Shown here: one piece after another, positions 15,781-49,345 of the stretch
How the letters are laid out: each line of letters begins with the position of its first letter
Numbering within the stretch: the first letter of the stretch is position 1
NCBI GenBank assembly: GCA_029260935.1
Contig: JAJDCJ010000012.1
Location: forward strand, 33,315-97,314
Reading direction: 5' to 3'
DNA length: 64,000 nucleotides
From: Patescibacteria group bacterium
GTDB lineage: Bacteria > Patescibacteriota > Minisyncoccia > Phycocordibacterales > Phycocordibacteraceae
Position numbers and translations under genes: made by a program
Notes under the pieces: generated by a model
The model's database searches: none
The model's input: only the letters and a program-made list of their open reading frames with translations
Told to the model about the DNA's origin: nothing

Positions 15781-15935
15781 CTGGGGGACAGGGACTCGAA
15801 CCCCGATTGATGGCACCAGAAACCATAGTCCTACCGACAAGCGAGTGAGGGTCACAGGAAAGTTTACTTTCATATGACCGAACGAGCGCAGTCGGAAAGC
15901 TTTGCTTACCACTGGACGATCCCCCAAGGCGTTAG
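15781..15935 (-). tRNA. tRNA-Gln(CUG) interrupted in the D-loop by an 81-nt insertion
   Basis: The exons fold into a canonical 74-nt tRNA with U1-A72, G73, D-arm GUCC/GGAC, anticodon loop UUCUGGU and T-loop UUCGAGU. The insert starts AGCAAAGCUU. Confidence 0.6.
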
Positions 15936-20019: not shown

Positions 20020-20931
20020 TTATTCTACCGCACTTTCTTTCATTGCGTCTATAAAGCTATCCAGAACCCCTTCAAAGACAGCATCAACATCGCTTTCTTC
20101 AACGCCGGTACGGTGATCTTTCACCATTTTATAGGGATGCTGGACATAGGAGCGTATTTGGCTCCCCCATTCAATTGGTGTGTGTGCGGCGATTGAAAGT
20201 CCTTGGCGTTCTTTTTCCTTCCGTTCCTCTTCTTTTTTAAAGAGCTTTGACTTTAAAAGCGCCAATGCTCGTTCGCGGTTTGCCTGCTGACTTCGCTCGT
20301 TTGACACATGCACTGAAAGTCCTGACGGCGTATGAGTAATACGCACCGCTGTTTCTCTTTTGTTTACATTCTGTCCGCCAGCGCCTCCTGATTTTGTAAA
20401 TTGAATTTCCAAATCATCTTCGTCCATTTCAATTTTATTTTGTGCACCAAGGTCAGGGAGGACTTCAACCAGCGCAAAAGAAGTCTGCCTCTTATCGTTT
20501 GCATTAAAAGGCGAGAGTCGCACCAGGCGATGCACCCCTGCTTCATGCTTTAAATTACCATATACACCCTTACCTTTAATTTCAAAAGTAACGTTTCGGT
20601 ACCCACCGTGATTATTTTCGTGGTCATGTAGAAAAGTGACGGTATAGCCCTTTTTGTCAGCATATCCTTGATACATTCTAAAAAGCATTCCTACGAAGTC
20701 CTCAGCATCATCACCTCCTGCGCCAGCTAAAATTGCAAGAGTAGCGGAACCTGCATCATGAGGCGAAACTCCTTCGGCTACAGAAGCAAGGTCTTTCATT
20801 TCTTTTATCAAAGACTGTGCCTTGTCTTTATCTACCCAAAAATCAGGTTGCCCCATAGCCGCTTCAATTTCAGCAATACGCATTTTTGCTTCTTTTTTGT
20901 CCATACACAGTACGCTACCATATTTTGGCAA
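20020..20931 (-). CDS. prfB: peptide chain release factor 2
   Basis: SPF tripeptide (RLSPFNAN) and GGQ motif (SGGAGGQNVN). Confidence 0.85.
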   Translation of the reverse strand: MPKYGSVLCMDKKEAKMRIAEIEAAMGQPDFWVDKDKAQSLIKEMKDLASVAEGVSPHDAGSATLAILAGAGGDDAEDFVGMLFRMYQGYADKKGYTVTFLHDHENNHGGYRNVTFEIKGKGVYGNLKHEAGVHRLVRLSPFNANDKRQTSFALVEVLPDLGAQNKIEMDEDDLEIQFTKSGGAGGQNVNKRETAVRITHTPSGLSVHVSNERSQQANRERALALLKSKLFKKEEERKEKERQGLSIAAHTPIEWGSQIRSYVQHPYKMVKDHRTGVEESDVDAVFEGVLDSFIDAMKESAVE

Positions 20932-21022
20932 AACAGACTTTTTTGGGTAAGATACTGAGGTGTTGGGGTACGTAAAACTTTCCTTGGCACTACTCAGACA
21001 AAGTCAGTAGTGTGCCGTTGTA

Positions 21023-21157
21023 AGCAAAGCTTGCACCGGCGGCGTTCTAACAAAATATACTCACGGGCGGTTTTGTTCTTTCAGAAAAATGTAAACGAGC
21101 TTTCATTTTTCTTCTATCACAAAACCACGCGCTTCGCGCAATTTCCGTGAGCAACTT
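21023..21157 (+). mobile_element. about 135-nt inserted element beginning AGCAAAGCTT, flanked by a 9-bp duplication of the tRNA-Thr 5' end
   Basis: GCCGTTGTA occurs at 21014-21022 and again as the first 9 nt of the tRNA at 21158-21166. Confidence 0.5.
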
Positions 21158-21233
21158 GCCGTTGTAGCTCAGCTGGTAGAGCGCATCCATGGTAAGGATG
21201 AGGTCCCCGGTTCAAACCCGGGCAACGGCTCCA
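21158..21233 (+). tRNA. tRNA-Thr(GGU)
   Basis: Cloverleaf with anticodon loop AUGGUAA, T-loop UUCAAAC, encoded CCA. Confidence 0.85.
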
Positions 21234-21272
21234 GACTAGTACTCTTGGCATTAGTGCCTAAAGTACTAGTGT

Positions 21273-21347
21273 GCCACCTTAGCTCAGTTGGTAGAGCATT
21301 TCACTCGTAACGAAAAGGTCCGCGGTTCAATCCCGCGAGGTGGCTCA
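21273..21347 (+). tRNA. tRNA-Thr(CGU)
   Basis: Acceptor GCCACCU/AGGUGGC, anticodon loop CUCGUAA, T-loop UUCAAUC. Confidence 0.8.
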
Positions 21348-21358
21348 TAAAACTAGAA

Positions 21359-21386
21359 AATAGTGACTTCGTAAGTCACTATTTTG
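21359..21386 (+). terminator. hairpin ATAGTGACTTCGTAAGTCACTAT followed by a T-run
   Basis: Immediately downstream of the tRNA pair. Confidence 0.6.
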
Positions 21387-21387
21387 C

Positions 21388-21762
21388 TCATATCTTTTTA
21401 GTGAAAAATTGTAATATCAATAATACAGCGAAAAAAAACGGTACAGTAACTAAAAATTGCTGGGCGTTATATTGCCTTTGCAAGACAGGCGAGTCCAATA
21501 TAACTTGAGCATGCTCCAGGTAATTATTTTTAATAATAAAATAACCGGAGTAAATACTCAAAGGTAAGTAATTAATACCTATCCCAATAAGCCAGAAGCC
21601 CATTGCGGTGGTTAGTAAGTGTGAATTCCCAAGAAGAAAATAACTTAATGCAAAAGAACCAAAACTCCCTACTAAAAACTCAGTGAAAATTAACCACTTA
21701 TTATTGACACTCATGTCGAAAGCAACGAGTTTACTTATGTTAAGTGAAGACATTAACATCAA
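21388..21762 (-). CDS. integral membrane protein, unknown
   Basis: 124 aa, three or four hydrophobic helices. Confidence 0.35.
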   Translation of the reverse strand: MMLMSSLNISKLVAFDMSVNNKWLIFTEFLVGSFGSFALSYFLLGNSHLLTTAMGFWLIGIGINYLPLSIYSGYFIIKNNYLEHAQVILDSPVLQRQYNAQQFLVTVPFFFAVLLILQFFTKKI

Positions 21763-21878
21763 CTATACCAATTCTACCGTCCCCCAGTATGTCCTATCGG
21801 GGGGGTGCTTTTTATTCTTATTTTCCACAATCATCTGTTACCCCCCCCTATAGACACTGGATGTCCATGGGGGATTCA

Positions 21879-21931
21879 GCCACGTAAAAGTAAATATGGA
21901 CACGCCGTGTCCATATTTACTTTTACGTGGC
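21879..21931. repeat. 53-bp perfect palindrome
   Basis: GCCACGTAAAAGTAAATATGGACACG / CGTGTCCATATTTACTTTTACGTGGC; its 27-bp core recurs at 44164-44196. Confidence 0.9.
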
Positions 21932-21932
21932 T

Positions 21933-22090
21933 CTCCGGCGAAGCCGGACCCAGCTCCGCCGGGCGGTCCGCATATGTAAGCAAAGCTTCCTCTCATCGAT
22001 CACTCGGAAGAGTAACCGCATTCACTCTTCCCTCGCTTCTCTCGATAGTAAAGAAAAACAGTACGCAGGTACTGTTTGTTCTTTCATATG
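21933..22090. repeat. repeat-family copy: GCTCCGCCGGGC motif, GTAAGCAAAGCTT, internal hairpins, ending at the tRNA-Asp 3' end
   Basis: Shares GCTCCGCCGGGC and GTAAGCAAAGC with the 48786-49225 array, and TTTGTTCTTTCA with 21023-21157. Confidence 0.6.
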
Positions 22091-22165
22091 CGCGGCCGAC
22101 CGGACTCGAACCGGCAACCTCCCGCGTGACAGGCGGGTGCTACTAACCAATTGAGCTACGGCCGC
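22091..22165 (-). tRNA. tRNA-Asp(GUC)
   Basis: Anticodon loop CUGUCAC, T-loop UUCGAGU, acceptor GCGGCCG/CGGCCGC. Confidence 0.8.
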
Positions 22166-22850
22166 ATTTCGGATACAGAGTATGTATTGCCTTCGAAAAT
22201 AGCTCGTATTTCCTTGGTAAATACAGTTCTGTATTAGGGCTAGTATGATACATCAGCTTGTAAAGTGCAAGACTATCGCGATGACTAAAAACAAGTTCAA
22301 AGCCTCGCTTCTTGTACTTTTCTAAAACAAATCCCCTATTCAGACCATTTTCTCTAAGAGTACTAAAGAGTGTTAGAAGAAATTTTTGAGATCCTGACGT
22401 GAATCTGCTTGTAAATACCCAACGTTTTTTGTTTCGATCTTTAGCAAAATATTTTTTAAAATGAACGCTGCCGTCGCCATCAAAATATCCCCTGACGAAA
22501 TGATGTAAATATCCTTGAGGGACTTTTGGGAAACAGATTGTTTTGCTTTTGTTTTGAGTGAAACCAAGTTTTATCAAATCAGAGAACCATTCTCTACTTC
22601 CAAACTGCACGCGATACTGTTGCTTCCATTTTTCGTTCCTTTGAGGACGTTCCGAAATTTTCTGAGTTCCTCCGACAATCTTCCGTAATTTTTGAAGCAA
22701 AATTTTGTCTGTAGATGTAAATTCAATATAGTGTCCTCCTCTTTTATTCTCAATCATTGAACCGTCTGCGGCAAAATACCCCAATACATACGCCATGTCT
22801 GATGTCCACGTTTTGAAAAAGTCTTGGTTTAGCTTCTTTTTTATTGGCAC
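22143..22850 (-). CDS. double-motif LAGLIDADG homing-endonuclease-family protein, free-standing, directly 5' of tRNA-Asp
   Basis: Two motifs, VLGYFAADGSM and VRGYFDGDGSV, spaced about 100 aa apart; the 3' end overlaps the tRNA 5' region by about 23 nt. Confidence 0.7.
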   Translation of the reverse strand: MPIKKKLNQDFFKTWTSDMAYVLGYFAADGSMIENKRGGHYIEFTSTDKILLQKLRKIVGGTQKISERPQRNEKWKQQYRVQFGSREWFSDLIKLGFTQNKSKTICFPKVPQGYLHHFVRGYFDGDGSVHFKKYFAKDRNKKRWVFTSRFTSGSQKFLLTLFSTLRENGLNRGFVLEKYKKRGFELVFSHRDSLALYKLMYHTSPNTELYLPRKYELFSKAIHTLYPKCGRSSIG

Positions 22851-24844: not shown

Positions 24845-24896
24845 AAACGAGGAAGATAATGGAAGTGCGGAGCAATTACATTATTTCCGAGTGCAG

Positions 24897-25070
24897 CCGA
24901 CGCAAGCTCCGCTTACGCCGGCAAACTGCTTACGAGGATAGCGCGAAGCGCGTGTTTTTGCGAGTGAAGAAAAACAGAAGCTTGTTTATGTTTTTCTGAG
25001 AGAGCAAAAAAACTCGAAAGCGTATTCTGTCAGAGTGGGCCCGACGCAAGCTCCGCTTACGCCGGCAAAC
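24897..25070. repeat. two copies of a 30-nt acceptor-stem minihelix repeat CCGACGCAAGCTCCGCTTACGCCGGCAAAC
   Basis: Copies at 24897-24926 and 25041-25070. Read on the minus strand they give GCCGGCG-UAAGCGGAGCUUG-CGUCGGC, reproducing the tRNA-Met acceptor stem. Confidence 0.75.
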
Positions 25071-25121
25071 TCTTTCAGTTCTCAAAAAATACCATTTTTT
25101 GATGGAAAAAGAAATAAAAAA

Positions 25122-25450
25122 TGTTGCGGGGCCCAGAATCGAACTGGGGTCTGGAGGTTCTTTTACACTCAATGTTTCCAAAGAGAATGGACTATACCAT
25201 GGTCCACGTGGGACCCTCCCATTATAGTCTCTGAACCTTCCGAGCTATATCAAACGATATGGCTTGGCTTGGCTGCTGATTACCGAATCAACTTGCTTTT
25301 TAAACCATCGCACTCACCCTCTCAGGTCATGCTGTGGTGCAAGAAGCTCTAACGGCTTTCCAGCAATTTAGAGAGTTTTCCACCGTCTGTTGCCAAACGG
25401 GGTCACGTTCTTCACATGAGCCTCCCGAGGTACCTCTCCTCTACCCCGCG
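25122..25450 (-). ncRNA. about 330-nt structured RNA with tRNA-like T-arm and acceptor end; possible tmRNA (ssrA), unconfirmed
   Basis: 3' end CCCAGUUCGAUUCUGGG-CCCCGCA-A-CA pairs with 5' CGCGGGG. The region has no ORF and smpB is present in the window. There is no G3-U70 pair and no classic tag. Confidence 0.35.
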
Positions 25451-25537
25451 CTATCAGCATATGACATTAAGCTCTACTCGTCAACAAAGTAGCGAGATTA
25501 ACGTGACGCGCTCGTATTCTTGAGTCAATAACCACTA

Positions 25538-30089: not shown

Positions 30090-30680
30090 TTAAAACTGTA
30101 CACGAATGGCACGCTCAATACGGCGGGGGTTTGTGGTAACACATGTATTATGACCTGAGGAAACTACAGTGGTGCGTGTTGGATTTTCAGTTCTCTTCAC
30201 TTCAACATTTGAACACGCCTCTGATATAGCGTTCCCGAGTGAAAAAGAGAACGTAGTGGTATACGTTTGTGAAACCGGTTCAAATACACGAGTCAAAGGA
30301 ACAGTACTGCTTGGTAAGTCTCCGGTGCCACACGCTATTTCGGTTAACGGTGATGAGGTAGAGAAAGCATCTTGTTTACTATCCCAATAAAGGGCGCACT
30401 CTATTCCTGAGTCGGCTGCATAAAATGCAAACTGCGACTCCCTTCCTGATGAGGAAAGAATGACGTCTTTCACCGCGATATTAAAAATTGCGAAGCCAAG
30501 CGCCAGCAGTACGCTGGAAATCAAAACCGAGAGTAATAATGTGAACCCACGCAGTGGTTTTGTAGTGTGAGCGCTCAGTAGTAATGAGCGGTCAGTTTTT
30601 TCCTGACTGCTGAGCGCTGGATACTGATTGCTCATTGCTGATTGCTCATTGCTGATTGTTAGTTTTTTTATCATAGCCAA
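30090..30680 (-). CDS. pseudopilin / minor type IV pilin with long N-terminal leader
   Basis: Prepilin motif RG|FTLLLSVLISS; the leader contains SNEQSAMSNQ...KTDRSLL. Confidence 0.6.
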   Translation of the reverse strand: MAMIKKLTISNEQSAMSNQYPALSSQEKTDRSLLLSAHTTKPLRGFTLLLSVLISSVLLALGFAIFNIAVKDVILSSSGRESQFAFYAADSGIECALYWDSKQDAFSTSSPLTEIACGTGDLPSSTVPLTRVFEPVSQTYTTTFSFSLGNAISEACSNVEVKRTENPTRTTVVSSGHNTCVTTNPRRIERAIRVQF

Positions 30681-31270
30681 TCAAAAAGTTGTTCTCTTAC
30701 TTCAAACGAGCGCTCTAGACGTCCACTTTGCCAAGAGACCGTAACGCTCACCGTCACTTCGTCAGGGTTCAATGTAGACGGATCAACACGAAGGGTACGG
30801 GTATATATACTTGGAATGCCGGCAACTAAATTAAAAAACCCTGTAGTTTCTCCTATTAAGACAGTTGGACATTGTCCCGAACATGATTGATGAGAGAAGT
30901 TTGGAAAATCAATAGCACAATCCAAGCCAACACACTCTGAAAGTCCATTGAGCCACCCACTTCCTACAAGATAATTTTGATCACGGACTGCACGCACATA
31001 CTCCACTGCTTCTTGCGCAAGATAAAATGCTGTAATTTGATCGCGTGCATAGAACGCAGACTGAAGTGATTGCGATGCAATTGAAAGTGGGCCTGCAAGT
31101 GAGACAAGAAGCACTGAAATTGCAACGAGAGTTTCAATCAACGTAAAACCACCTCGCAACTTCACACGATGAATAGTGAACAGCGAGCGGTCAGTTTTCT
31201 GCTGATTGCTGAGCGCTGATTGCTCATTGCTGTTTACTGTTTGCTGGATGCTGGATGCTATTTTCATCAT
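30671..31270 (-). CDS. pseudopilin / minor type IV pilin
   Basis: GG|FTLIETLVAISV; same conserved leader; possible GTG or TTG start just before KLRGG. Confidence 0.6.
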   Translation of the reverse strand: MMKIASSIQQTVNSNEQSALSNQQKTDRSLFTIHRVKLRGGFTLIETLVAISVLLVSLAGPLSIASQSLQSAFYARDQITAFYLAQEAVEYVRAVRDQNYLVGSGWLNGLSECVGLDCAIDFPNFSHQSCSGQCPTVLIGETTGFFNLVAGIPSIYTRTLRVDPSTLNPDEVTVSVTVSWQSGRLERSFEVREQLFDWL

Positions 31271-31929
31271 ATATCAATTATACGTTGCGTAACGGATGCC
31301 TGAACAGAGAAATTTGTAGTTCCTCCAGGAACAGGGGCCGACCCTTGTATTTTCATTAACACGCGCGGTTGAATAGAATCGCCTTTCACTGCACCCACCA
31401 CAAAAAACTCAAAAGAATCAATAGAGACTTCGGGTGCCGTGAGTGCAACCCACGAACCGTTAATGCCTGCCTGTACGGAGCGCTCAAGTTGTGTACCGTT
31501 AATGCGATAAACGATCTGATCATTGACGTCTGCAGTCTCTCCATTTGCCGCTTCAAAGGCAAATAACTGTCCACCACCAACCGGACAGTCCTGTGGGGTG
31601 CTGAGCTGGCCAGGGAAAGGTGCGGCTGATGAGATACGGCAATGATACGTAGTCCCGACGCGAATAGACCGCGACATACCTTCAAGCGCTGCATTCATAT
31701 TATTTACCACTGAGTTGATGGCCTGCGCCCGGCGGTTTGCGTCAATAAGTGACAAAAGTGCGCCTACCCCAATAAGCATAACCACTGAGAACAGCGTCAC
31801 CGCAACCATCATTTCAATCAATGTGAAGCCGGCTCTGGGCTTCATGCGGTGAGCAGTGAGCAGTGAGCGATCAGTTTTCTGCTGATTGCTGATTGCTGGA
31901 TGCTGGATGCTGATTGCTGTTTTACTCAT
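31267..31929 (-). CDS. pseudopilin / minor type IV pilin
   Basis: AG|FTLIEMMVAVTLF; an internal MKPRAG would give a conventional short leader. Confidence 0.6.
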   Translation of the reverse strand: MSKTAISIQHPAISNQQKTDRSLLTAHRMKPRAGFTLIEMMVAVTLFSVVMLIGVGALLSLIDANRRAQAINSVVNNMNAALEGMSRSIRVGTTYHCRISSAAPFPGQLSTPQDCPVGGGQLFAFEAANGETADVNDQIVYRINGTQLERSVQAGINGSWVALTAPEVSIDSFEFFVVGAVKGDSIQPRVLMKIQGSAPVPGGTTNFSVQASVTQRIIDI

Positions 31930-32516
31930 AGGTTTTGTACGGAAATCTGCCCTGTTGAAGCAATGTTAATAGTGCGTGTTTCTCCTCCCTGGGAAGCAAC
32001 AGTGATAATGCCACGCGAGTAAATACCTGGTTCATTTGAACTTATAAGAGCATCAGGGTTTGGACGAAGGAACACTACATCAAGGTGACTAATAGGAGTG
32101 CTTGAGTTAGAGCATCGCTCAGTGCCACCTACGGTGACTCCACAGAAGCTCTGTATGGTATGTCCACGACTTAAAGAGAACGTATCTATGACCGCATCAG
32201 TGCCAACATCATATGTTTGGTTTGTATTAGTGTCCACGAAAAAAAGGTATGTACTGTTTGGAAGAAAACGCACCCCATAGCCGACTTGAAAATTATCTGA
32301 GAATTGCCGTACCGAAAGACCAAACACCTGTGCCTCACGAACCGAGAGTGCAATATCGTAGGCGAGCGAACCAAGGAGCACTGAGCTATTAAATTTATTA
32401 TTGTTCGCCAAAACAACCGTTGATATAAATGCAAAAATACTTACCGCAACGATAAGCTCTATAAGAGAAAAACCTCGTGACTGTTTAGTTAAGACATTCA
32501 TATGGCGAGCGCCCAC
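31926..32516 (-). CDS. pseudopilin / minor type IV pilin
   Basis: RG|FSLIELIVAVSIFAF. Confidence 0.6.
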   Translation of the reverse strand: MGARHMNVLTKQSRGFSLIELIVAVSIFAFISTVVLANNNKFNSSVLLGSLAYDIALSVREAQVFGLSVRQFSDNFQVGYGVRFLPNSTYLFFVDTNTNQTYDVGTDAVIDTFSLSRGHTIQSFCGVTVGGTERCSNSSTPISHLDVVFLRPNPDALISSNEPGIYSRGIITVASQGGETRTINIASTGQISVQNL

Positions 32517-34018: not shown

Positions 34019-34255
34019 AAGAGACGCTCCGTAATACGGGTATTTTGGAGAGCGCTCCGGGCCGCGAGATTAAGTCTTACTCTCCAAAATACCCGTATTA
34101 CTTCGCTGAGGTTGAGGAACCGAACGCTTACCCAAGTCTTACGCTCTCAAATACTCATTTTGCTCCGCTAAAGTATAAGAACCAGGGCCGCGAGATTAAG
34201 TCTTACGCTCCAAAATACCCGTATTACTTCGCTGAGGTTGAGGAACCGAACGCTA
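34019..34255. repeat. pilA upstream region: 22-nt inverted repeat plus two copies of a 72-nt direct repeat (period 132)
   Basis: GGCCGCGAGATTAAGTCTTAC...GAACCGAACGCT at 34052-34124 and 34184-34255; GTAATACGGGTATTTTGGAGAG is inverted against CTCTCCAAAATACCCGTATTAC. Confidence 0.8.
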
Positions 34256-34300
34256 GGCAAAGTCTAAGTCTGCAACAGTACCGTTTTACTGAGCGACCTT

Positions 34301-43728: not shown

Positions 43729-43772
43729 AATCAGTTCACTAGTTTTACATCGTTACGGATGAGAGACGAAGG

Positions 43773-43791
43773 ACCACTCACCCACGTCTCC
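43773..43791. repeat. partial copy of the tRNA-Ser 5' end (CCACTCACCCACGTCTCC)
   Basis: Duplicates 43711-43728, about 45 nt beyond the tRNA 5' end. Confidence 0.75.
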
Positions 43792-44085: not shown

Positions 44086-44196
44086 TAGCACAGTACCTAC
44101 GTATATAAATACGTATTTATATACGTAGGTGTTGTAAGAAACAAAAACCCTTTCACACACTAGTTGAAATATGGACACGGCGTGTCCATATTTCAA
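44086..44196. promoter_or_regulatory. divergent intergenic region with two perfect palindromes
   Basis: Palindrome 1 (44086-44119): CCTACGTATATAAATACG/CGTATTTATATACGTAGG. Palindrome 2 (44164-44196): TTGAAATATGGACACG/CGTGTCCATATTTCAA. Both lie between the AbrB-like gene and zwf. Confidence 0.7.
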
Positions 44197-48785: not shown

Positions 48786-49225
48786 TTTGTCGTCACAAGT
48801 AATTTTCCTGACGGAAAATTTTCGCGCGACCAATTTCTCTTATGAGTCAGACGAATTAGAGAAATGGAAGTACTCCTGTGGTGACCCCGGCTCGCCCGGC
48901 TCCGCCGGGCTGCGCCTCTCGGACATGTACGCGAAAACGCCAAGCAGTTGGCTTACGTGTCGTCACAGATAATCCTTCGTCGCCACTCAGGATTTCCGCG
49001 ACCCCGGCTCGTGGTTTTTCCTGCTGGAAAAACATCACTGCGCCTCGGACAAACGCACAAAAACCTGCCGCAGGGCAGGTCTTTGTGTACTTGTCGTCAC
49101 AAGTTGCTAAGTATTTTAGAGCGCTTCGCTTCTAGAATACTAAGCACTCGCGACCCCGGCTCGCCCGGCTCCGCCGGGCTGCGCCTCTCGAACCAGCGCC
49201 GTAAGCAAAGCAGTTTGCTTACTAA
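48786..49225. repeat. tandem array of three composite repeat units (130-170 nt each)
   Basis: Each unit is TGTCGTCACARRT, a unit-specific palindromic hairpin, CGCGACCCCGGCTCG, a second hairpin (CCCGGCTCCGCCGGG in units 1 and 3), CTGCGCCTC(T)CG, then a variable tail. Unit 3 ends with GTAAGCAAAGCAGTTTGCTTAC. Confidence 0.8.
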
Positions 49226-49267: not shown

Positions 49268-49345
49268 TGGTCCGCCCTCTTGGACTCGAACCAAGAAACC
49301 TTCTAGGTATAAGCTAGATGCTCTAACCAATTGAGCTAAGGGCGG
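49268..49345 (-). tRNA. tRNA-Ile(UAU)
   Basis: Acceptor CCGCCCU/AGGGCGG, D-arm GCUC/GAGC, anticodon stem UCUAG/CUAGA with loop CUUAUAC, T-loop UUCGAGU, encoded CCA. Confidence 0.75.

Follow-up and report, generated by a model that had tools for sequence, protein, structure and literature searches.

Small structured inserts in Parcubacteria tRNA genes carry a strand that pairs with a displaced copy of the tRNA 5′ end

Bacterial MITEs and IS derivatives that generate 9-bp target duplications include elements of the IS4/Tn5/Tn10 and IS903 types, and to our knowledge none of the MITEs described so far has a strand that would pair with the target duplication it makes. In tRNA genes, the usual targets of bacterial integrases are the anticodon loop or the T loop, with duplication of the 3′ part of the gene, as Williams is said to have concluded in 2002, while Egan and Landy reportedly described in 1978 a set of 178-bp repeats distal to E. 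coli tyrT, each containing the last 19 nt of tRNA-Tyr. Fragments of the 5′ part of a tRNA have been described in archaea, where a tRNA-Thr(GGU) 5′ fragment of Caldiarchaeum is parted from its gene by a 1.8-kb recombinase element (PMC3293823). REP/RAYT sequences and IS200-IS605 derivatives have an unpaired GTAG tag 5′ of a palindrome, are associated with a Y1 transposase and produce no target duplication (PMC3733652), and group I introns are known from tRNA genes of Patescibacteria (PMC13011429). Here we describe a tRNA-Thr(GGU) locus that recalls several of these systems, located in a 64,000-nt stretch of Patescibacteria DNA, from a member of the Parcubacteria (Paceibacterota), that was analysed as a whole (hereafter the window). 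It belongs to a family of small structured tRNA-gene inserts found across Parcubacteria, so far undescribed, for which our literature searches returned no description.

The repeat unit at tRNA-Thr(GGU)

The first nine nucleotides of tRNA-Thr(GGU), GCCGTTGTA, occur exactly twice in the window (0.43 copies expected), at 21014-21022 and at 21158-21166, the second copy being nt 1-9 of the intact gene itself (21158-21233, forward strand). Between them lies a 135-nt insert opening with AGCAAAGCTTGCACCG, which together with the displaced 9-nt copy (F) makes up a repeat unit of 144 nt. A first-pass annotation of the DNA had already described this bracketing of an insert by the tRNA start, and it is borne out by two exact copies and by contig L001, which was separately assembled and is identical to the window across the whole tRNA-Thr region, indicating that repeat and insert are not an assembly artefact. 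Chance and artefact are ruled out by this identity in combination with the rarity of the repeat, controls at tRNA loci and shuffles of a second motif, GTAAGCAAAGC, the last two of which are given below.

The sole promoter-like site within 20850-21450 (TTGGCA-17-TAAGAT, 20925-20953, forward strand; a consensus match only) lies upstream of the first 9-mer and none was found inside the units, so the unit would be part of the transcribed pre-tRNA leader. The ancestral leader of the gene, with its original hairpin (20990-21010, forward strand) followed by GUGU, abuts the first 9-mer copy and not the second, and the tRNA-Thr(CGU) gene at 21273 has the same leader layout. Just past a conserved cap, an element-borne strand pairs with the displaced tRNA 5′ fragment as a ~12-bp hairpin, P1 (21014-21040, forward strand; seen in folds and in covariation), which is made up of F (21014-21022, forward strand), the cap AAGC-AAA-GCUUG with a U8.G wobble, and the complement of F (rcF, CACCGGC), the latter being complementary to the acceptor 5′ strand. 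The remainder of the unit, all on the forward strand, consists of a single-stranded junction of the long type (GGCGTTCTAACAAAATATA, 21041-21059; kept as NYTCTRACANAAT in homologues), a long imperfect hairpin (21060-21151; fold z-score -5.1) with compensatory changes in the alignment of long units, a conserved apex TGTAAACGAGCTTTCA (21090-21105) and a side hairpin GCGCTTCGCGC (21129-21139), and the tail CAACTT (21152-21157), which abuts tRNA nt 1.

The motif GTAAGCAAAGC had been taken as the hallmark of the family. Its recurrence is genuine, with four exact copies (21020, 21976 and 49201, forward strand; 15909-15899, reverse strand) and four one-mismatch copies against 1.48 expected, a count reached in 0 of 100 shuffles, although the positions assigned to it at tRNA-Gln and tRNA-Asp were off by 3-18 nt. 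However, P1 includes GTAAGCAAAGC, which is thus just the P1 tip; the family is defined instead by the strand complementary to the duplicated tRNA segment, as evidenced by covariation, and by conserved junction and tail motifs. The copy at 49201 forms a hairpin in the tRNA-Ile array, which had been grouped with the units but belongs to a separate family located at the 3′ flanks of tRNAs. Two further proposals changed on inspection. The shared motif TTTGTTCTTTCA, placed at 21090 and 22070, is in fact located at 21072 and 22075 and was rejected as a family motif because the latter copy is the tRNA-Asp terminator stem on the other strand. A GGAARAGU..ACUYUUCC hairpin is present at 22006-22031, but this is its single occurrence, and other copies have an equivalent hairpin that differs in sequence. 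The first-pass annotation had overlooked the complementary strand and merged in the separate 3′-flank family.

Further units in the window and across Parcubacteria

A repeat search found 21009-21166 to be 73% complementary to 24914-25071 (158 nt), a match that covers a second long-type unit, MetA (24923-25066, reverse strand; 144 nt), homologous to the Thr unit and starting with tRNA-Met nt 1-9 (GCCGGCGTA). Adjoining it is a short-type unit, MetB (24845-24922, reverse strand; 78 nt), composed of F, P1, the junction UGCACUCGG, a second hairpin (P2) and the tail CCUCGUUU, which ends at nt 1 (24844) of the elongator tRNA-Met (24844-24770, reverse strand) and is the top match of the covariance model introduced below (75.8 bits). 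The sequence TTTGCCGGCGTA appears three times here, at the start of MetA, at the start of MetB and in the tRNA itself; in each Thr and Met unit the 9-mer equals nt 1-9 of that same tRNA.

Less regular units occur at three other places. In tRNA-Gln(CUG) (15926-15778 including the insert, reverse strand; not called by ARAGORN) a 75-nt unit (15832-15906, reverse strand) follows GGTA in the D loop, confirming an insert noted on the first reading, which is absent from the uninterrupted orthologues of three relatives. Apart from the insert this gene is undecayed, with intact acceptor, D, anticodon and T stems, and the insert folds as a closed domain, so the insertion either happened very recently or yields an RNA that is, by some route, matured or tolerated all the same. 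A separately assembled Logan contig (L082) breaks inside the insert, its start corresponding to window position 15881, a break to be anticipated if the assembly ran into a repeated motif or a variant. An orphan short-type unit with no tRNA after it (21976-22038, forward strand; a weak covariance-model match of 13.3 bits) lies beside the tRNA-Asp terminator in the opposite orientation, and a variant unit upstream of tRNA-Ser(GCU) (43729-43791, reverse strand) comprises a copy of tRNA nt 1-19, 63 nt upstream, followed by CGUCUCU, which pairs with the acceptor 5′ strand.

The distribution of the family was assessed in ~100 Parcubacteria loci (1.13 Mb, 247 unique tRNA loci), all of them the neighbourhood of one release-factor gene. 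At 19 of the 247 loci, the tRNA's own nt 1-9 were found again upstream as an exact copy that does not belong to a paralogous tRNA, compared with a single locus in the downstream control and none with reversed sequences; cyanobacterial control loci contained 3 tRNAs only. A covariance model, R1, built from 11 short units, produced 40 matches in the 1.13 Mb (~29 with E<0.01), and with seeds that had been chosen upstream of tRNAs, 17 of its 18 best matches terminate precisely at the first nucleotide of a called tRNA (Met, Asp, Thr-GGU or Thr-CGU); the remaining one precedes a tRNA-Thr(GGU) that ARAGORN missed because of a group I intron (L030). Five genomes yielded matches of the Gln type, which lie in the D loop of a copy of tRNA-Gln. 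The closest relative (L002) has a long-type unit at the orthologous tRNA-Thr(GGU) in the same arrangement; its tRNA-Met has a short unit and its tRNA-Asp two long ones. Within the collection, the genome nearest to the window belongs to a Candidatus Kaiserbacteria MAG, whose release factor is 72% identical. Unit-bearing genomes are scattered over the release-factor tree and patchy at the same tRNA among close relatives, and overall ~18% of tRNA loci in the sampled regions have a 5′ and ~12% a 3′ partial copy. Searches of Rfam 15 (gathering thresholds and E<=10) left the units unmatched, returning only tRNA, tmRNA, group I intron and chance-level matches.

Read as RNA in the tRNA sense, the units share the order tRNA nt 1-9 copy, cap, complement, single-stranded motif, P2, tail and intact tRNA. 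P1 combines the 9-nt F, a cap that is often AAGC-NNN-GCUUG with the U8.G wobble, and a 7-9-nt complement of F; in short units it is followed by the single-stranded junction UGCRCUCGG, a P2 hairpin that frequently has a GUAARC..GCUU tip motif, and a 6-nt tail (CCUCACUU or CCUCGUUU) abutting tRNA nt 1, whereas long units have NYTCTRACANAAT and a 92-nt hairpin with a conserved apex in place of the short junction and P2. Among the 11 short units, 89% of P1 and P2 cells are paired compared with 72.5% after shuffling (none of 500 shuffles equalled the real alignment), double-sided changes affect 12 of 16 pairs, and sliding the partner by 1-3 columns reduces pairing to 35-43%. P1 covaries with the local tRNA, as illustrated by the pairings GCCGUUG/CAACGG, GCCGAUG/CAUCGG, GCCAAUG/CAUUGGC and GUCGAUG/CAUCGAC, and its mismatches cluster where tRNAs differ from one another, at nt 5 and 6 of the acceptor. 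A self-complementary "anti-target" strand of this kind appears undescribed. In an alignment fitted to the model, non-Watson-Crick cells on the tRNA-sense strand comprise 34 G.U versus 12 A.C, an excess suggestive of RNA-level selection. In the Thr unit, the complement CACCGGC needs a single step to become perfect for Met and likewise a single step to become perfect for Thr, an intermediate state to be expected if a unit had been transferred within the genome between tRNA-Met and tRNA-Thr and then partially re-adapted. The alternative source of the complement, a copy of the tRNA's own 3′ acceptor strand, fits two informative cases and does not fit two others.

A second family, which includes the tRNA-Ile array, flanks tRNA 3′ ends and is distinct from the 5′ units. 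Its layout is the tRNA, a terminator, the reverse complement of the last 16-22 nt (sometimes split by a hairpin), a core, and a directly repeated tRNA 3′ end that begins with the T loop. The core is structured, with an invariant GGGGUCG...GUGACC and compensatory changes in 17 of 27 predicted pairs, and a second core type ends in ...GUACUGAAACUGUAAGU. A 16-nt copy of the 3′ end is found downstream at 14 of 247 loci versus 1 upstream, and Rfam contains no match to this family. Members are present in the window at 24769-24378, 43640-43449, ~49222-48790 and ~21975-21850 (all reverse strand) and at many of the fetched loci, for example L025 14790-14985. The co-occurrence of 5′ and 3′ partial copies as products of a single event was considered and rejected, as no association was observed (odds ratio 1.7, p = 0.29).

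The copy-complement-copy pattern on both tRNA flanks, and the existence of tandem arrays, would also be produced by local replication errors, in which template switching or tandem inversion duplication at tRNA hairpins yields direct-inverted-direct copies of the gene ends with no mobile element involved. We regard this as very unlikely, because the sequence between the copies is a conserved family common to different tRNAs and genomes and not locally derived, and because the complement stays at 7-9 nt regardless of the length of the copy.

The window contains several other notable features. The initiator tRNA-fMet (25450-25122, reverse strand; exons 25450-25416 and 25159-25122) has a 256-nt group I intron after its CAU anticodon; ARAGORN misses the gene and Rfam reports the intron only. 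This intron and that of the L030 tRNA-Thr(GGU) fit the published occurrence of tRNA group I introns in Patescibacteria (PMC13011429). The only relevant mobility-type gene among the 50 window ORFs is a free-standing LAGLIDADG homing-endonuclease-like ORF (22143-22850, reverse strand) that ends inside tRNA-Asp, its stop codon coinciding with tRNA nt 21-23, and there is no tRNA fragment upstream of it. Located 3′ of the same tRNA is a perfect palindrome with 27-bp arms (AGCCACGTAAAAGTAAATATGGACACG and its complement, 21878-21932), the central 27 nt of which recur at 44167-44193. A tRNA-Ile with the anticodon UAU is encoded at 49268-49345 (reverse strand); such a tRNA is uncommon in bacteria, where AUA is usually read by a modified CAU tRNA. 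The repeat search additionally identified short direct repeats with a 62-64-nt period and internal inverted repeats next to type IV pilus genes (34059-34265), and ~600-680-nt repeats with CTGATTGCTG-type tracts over three adjacent short ORFs (30586-31944).

Insertion points, leader folding and possible origins

The 78 junctions of upstream partial copies include 22 at tRNA nt 9, eight at nt 18-21 and three at nt 37-38, while many of the remainder (nt 25-28) merely reflect neighbouring paralogous tRNAs. The junctions prefer GTA^G, with 25 of 78 ending in GTA against a 5.5% background, in agreement with a GTA preference suggested on first reading. In the nt-9 class, identity does not extend 5′ of the repeat at all in 9 repeat pairs and extends by only 1-2 nt in 9 others (18 of 24 in total), and is longer only where the tail of an older unit or a tandem array sits upstream; judged from these sequences, the limited 5′ identity fits a 9-bp duplication. 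The expected 9-bp length applies to this main class only, since the internal copies in the Gln D loop and the Thr anticodon loop cleanly repeat no more than GTA or GGTA. These internal copies either interrupt a gene, as in the tRNA-Gln of the window, or sit in a truncated copy before an intact tRNA. The combination of GTA and a 9-bp duplication proposed by the first-pass annotation is therefore largely borne out for the main class. Within arrays, F copies are more decayed in distal than in proximal units, which along with the scattered distribution points to repeated gain and loss. At one locus (L180 2300-1990, reverse strand), an older tRNA-Thr(CGU) is split after CGTA in the anticodon loop by a unit and a complete, differently sequenced tRNA-Thr(CGU), with the older 3′ half and a further unit downstream, which suggests that whole unit-plus-tRNA cassettes can replace resident genes.

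The earlier reading of the units as mobile elements agrees with their recurrent, insert-like architecture but lacks the support of a transposase, terminal inverted repeats or empty-site polymorphism. No transposase, integrase, recombinase or reverse transcriptase was identified among the 50 window ORFs, no larger partner element within 12 kb at ~100 loci or between distant repeats, and no convincing terminal inverted repeats by inspection, the self-complementarity of the units coming from internal hairpins. A near-identical strain with an empty site was not found, exact-protein look-ups leading to the same sample only and two scans of the collection for close strains giving a best relative at <=72% protein identity; we thus infer the mobility of the units from their arrangement and have not observed it. 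The tRNA segment repeated directly at both ends is the signature of site-specific integration, and the units could accordingly be scars or miniature satellites of an element with a tyrosine or serine recombinase that used tRNA nt 1-9 as its attachment site and was later mostly deleted, leaving fused arms between the core copies. The parted tRNA-Thr(GGU) fragment of Caldiarchaeum offers a precedent and the 3′ flanks described above display the classical repeat, which spans the tRNA from T loop to 3′ end. We nonetheless consider this origin improbable: no integrase or recombinase domain was found in the window and the elements are just 65-135 nt long, no large element lies between distant repeats at the ~100 loci, the single uniform small architecture is unlike random deletion remnants, and bacterial integrases normally duplicate the 3′ part of a tRNA and not nt 1-9. 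BLAST searches of viral contigs, phage records and plasmid records returned no match to the units, and all 41 viral matches to GTAAGCAAAGCTTGC are unrelated coding sequence; a phage or plasmid origin was rejected on these grounds. Integration scars and template-switch errors both fit the data less well than insertion of a miniature element.

It is quite possible, and we tentatively propose, that the tRNA-Thr unit is a long-type member of a Parcubacteria-wide set of miniature tRNA-gene elements characterised by insertion at GTA^G, a ~9-bp duplication, neutralisation through P1 and removal by RNase P. According to this proposal, a MITE-like element would insert at GTA^G and duplicate ~9 bp. As G7-U8-A9 end the first 9 nt of the tRNA, insertion at nt 9/10 would duplicate exactly nt 1-9, and a complete tRNA gene would be rebuilt on the 3′ side only at this position, so that such insertions would survive. 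Insertion at the other GTA sites (nt 21, nt 37) would break the gene, and copies there are seen only in the interrupted tRNA-Gln or beside an intact replacement. The enrichment at nt 9/10 could then be due to survivorship, and the mechanism need not recognise the start of the tRNA. An empty tRNA-Thr site would be predicted to read ...AGTAGTGT joined directly to GCCGTTGTAGCTCAG.

In the predicted fold of the full precursor, a normal cloverleaf follows the leader hairpin, P1 and the long hairpin. Of 6 precursors folded in silico, 5 showed invasion of the real tRNA 5′ strand by the complement once F was deleted. When the complement was shuffled instead, every one of the 6 had its 3′ acceptor strand captured by the upstream 9-mer, in 16-20 folds out of 20. 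These folds are thermodynamic only and ignore co-transcriptional folding and tRNA tertiary structure. P1 may therefore be a device of mutual neutralisation, keeping the spare 5′ strand off the 3′ acceptor strand and the complement off the real 5′ strand. RNase P would cut at tRNA nt 1 and remove the whole leader, and since P1 resembles an acceptor/T-stem minihelix in the original leader context, it probably also cuts 5′ of P1 and hence on both sides of the unit. On this model the units are likely freed by RNase P as discrete structured RNAs, which makes them new small RNA candidates.

The same folds bear on a different reading, in which the units are a conserved cis-acting leader RNA, with F, the complement and the tRNA 5′ strand forming an attenuator-like three-part switch that tunes or checks tRNA maturation, or else a small RNA that RNase P sets free and that has a function of its own. 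The energies of the two alternative pairings are competitive, the unit is co-transcribed with the tRNA to judge by the consensus promoter match, structure is kept while sequence turns over, and the pairing bias suits the sense strand. Single-stranded motifs (UGCRCUCGG; CCUCACUU) are moreover kept across genomes with release factors 55-72% identical, and this conservation makes a host function plausible. However, units are patchy at the same tRNA among close relatives, orphan and gene-interrupting copies exist, arrays contain decaying distal copies, and Rfam offers no match. In addition, F is transcribed first and adjoins its complement, so P1 should always form and the switch would have no obvious input signal. 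Taken together, we find a leader RNA of this kind somewhat unlikely.

If insertion of a miniature element at GTA^G is correct, the units show how an essential gene can naturally receive an insert without harm: the tRNA is rebuilt by the duplication, and the fragment left over is disarmed by an antisense strand that the element itself brings. The units and their neighbours also account for tRNA genes of these genomes being overlooked or mis-called by tRNA finders, examples being the tRNA-Gln with its insert, the tRNA-fMet with its intron, and the fragments of 5′ and 3′ ends, and the frequency of 5′ and 3′ partial copies indicates that non-coding sequence concentrates around tRNA genes despite extreme genome reduction. 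The covariation of complement and target also raises the possibility of guide-directed insertion. The complement might act as the guide, 7-9 nt of the element's own end pairing with a single-stranded segment of a tRNA gene and thereby choosing the insertion point, with a duplication as long as the annealed stretch and the sister family doing likewise at tRNA 3′ ends. We think this distinctly unlikely, but if true it would constitute a new, enzyme-light and sequence-guided mode of insertion for tRNA termini in ultra-small genomes.

Comparison with known systems

Like MITEs, the units are small, non-coding, strongly structured and multi-copy, form arrays by what would be repeated insertion, and in their main class have a 9-bp direct repeat and a sequence preference at the junction. 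They differ in having no identified terminal inverted repeats or partner transposase and in that essentially all copies are in tRNA genes. A REP/RAYT or IS200/IS605 derivative was rejected as the duplication is present, no Y1 transposase was found in the window, and the GTA is paired within P1, away from G10. The Caldiarchaeum element shares with the units an upstream tRNA 5′ fragment, restoration of an intact tRNA downstream and even the tRNA species, whereas the units are 65-135 nt, lack a recombinase, repeat only nt 1-9 and have a uniform P1 architecture. The E. coli tyrT repeats more closely resemble the 3′-flank family, as both have units downstream of a tRNA that each end in a copy of its 3′ end, but the tyrT repeats are confined to one locus in one species, to the 3′ side, and have no structured core conserved across genomes.

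Two RNA systems offer parallels to P1. Plant mitochondrial t-elements and RNase P minihelix substrates (PMC1920247) likewise place an acceptor-stem-like helix in a precursor as a possible RNase P signal, and the ~12 bp of P1 equal an acceptor stem stacked on a T stem in length; t-elements, in contrast, are found beside mRNAs and do not repeat the 5′ end of a neighbouring tRNA. In the P1 and internal guide sequence of group I introns, host sequence ending in U is paired through U.G to an element-borne guide strand, and the U8.G pair is present in 12 of 28 units. Unlike group I introns, the units have no catalytic core or Rfam match, are only 65-135 nt and require no splicing, and they end in U (tails CUU or UUU) and not in the terminal G of these introns. 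A group I intron remnant was rejected given the absence of an RF00028 core and a terminal G, and the sole group I intron found in the window by Rfam (gathering thresholds and E<=10) is the true intron at 25168-25500. Thus, while falling outside what defines either of the two, the units work like a 9-bp-duplicating MITE combined with a tRNA-restoring integrative element.
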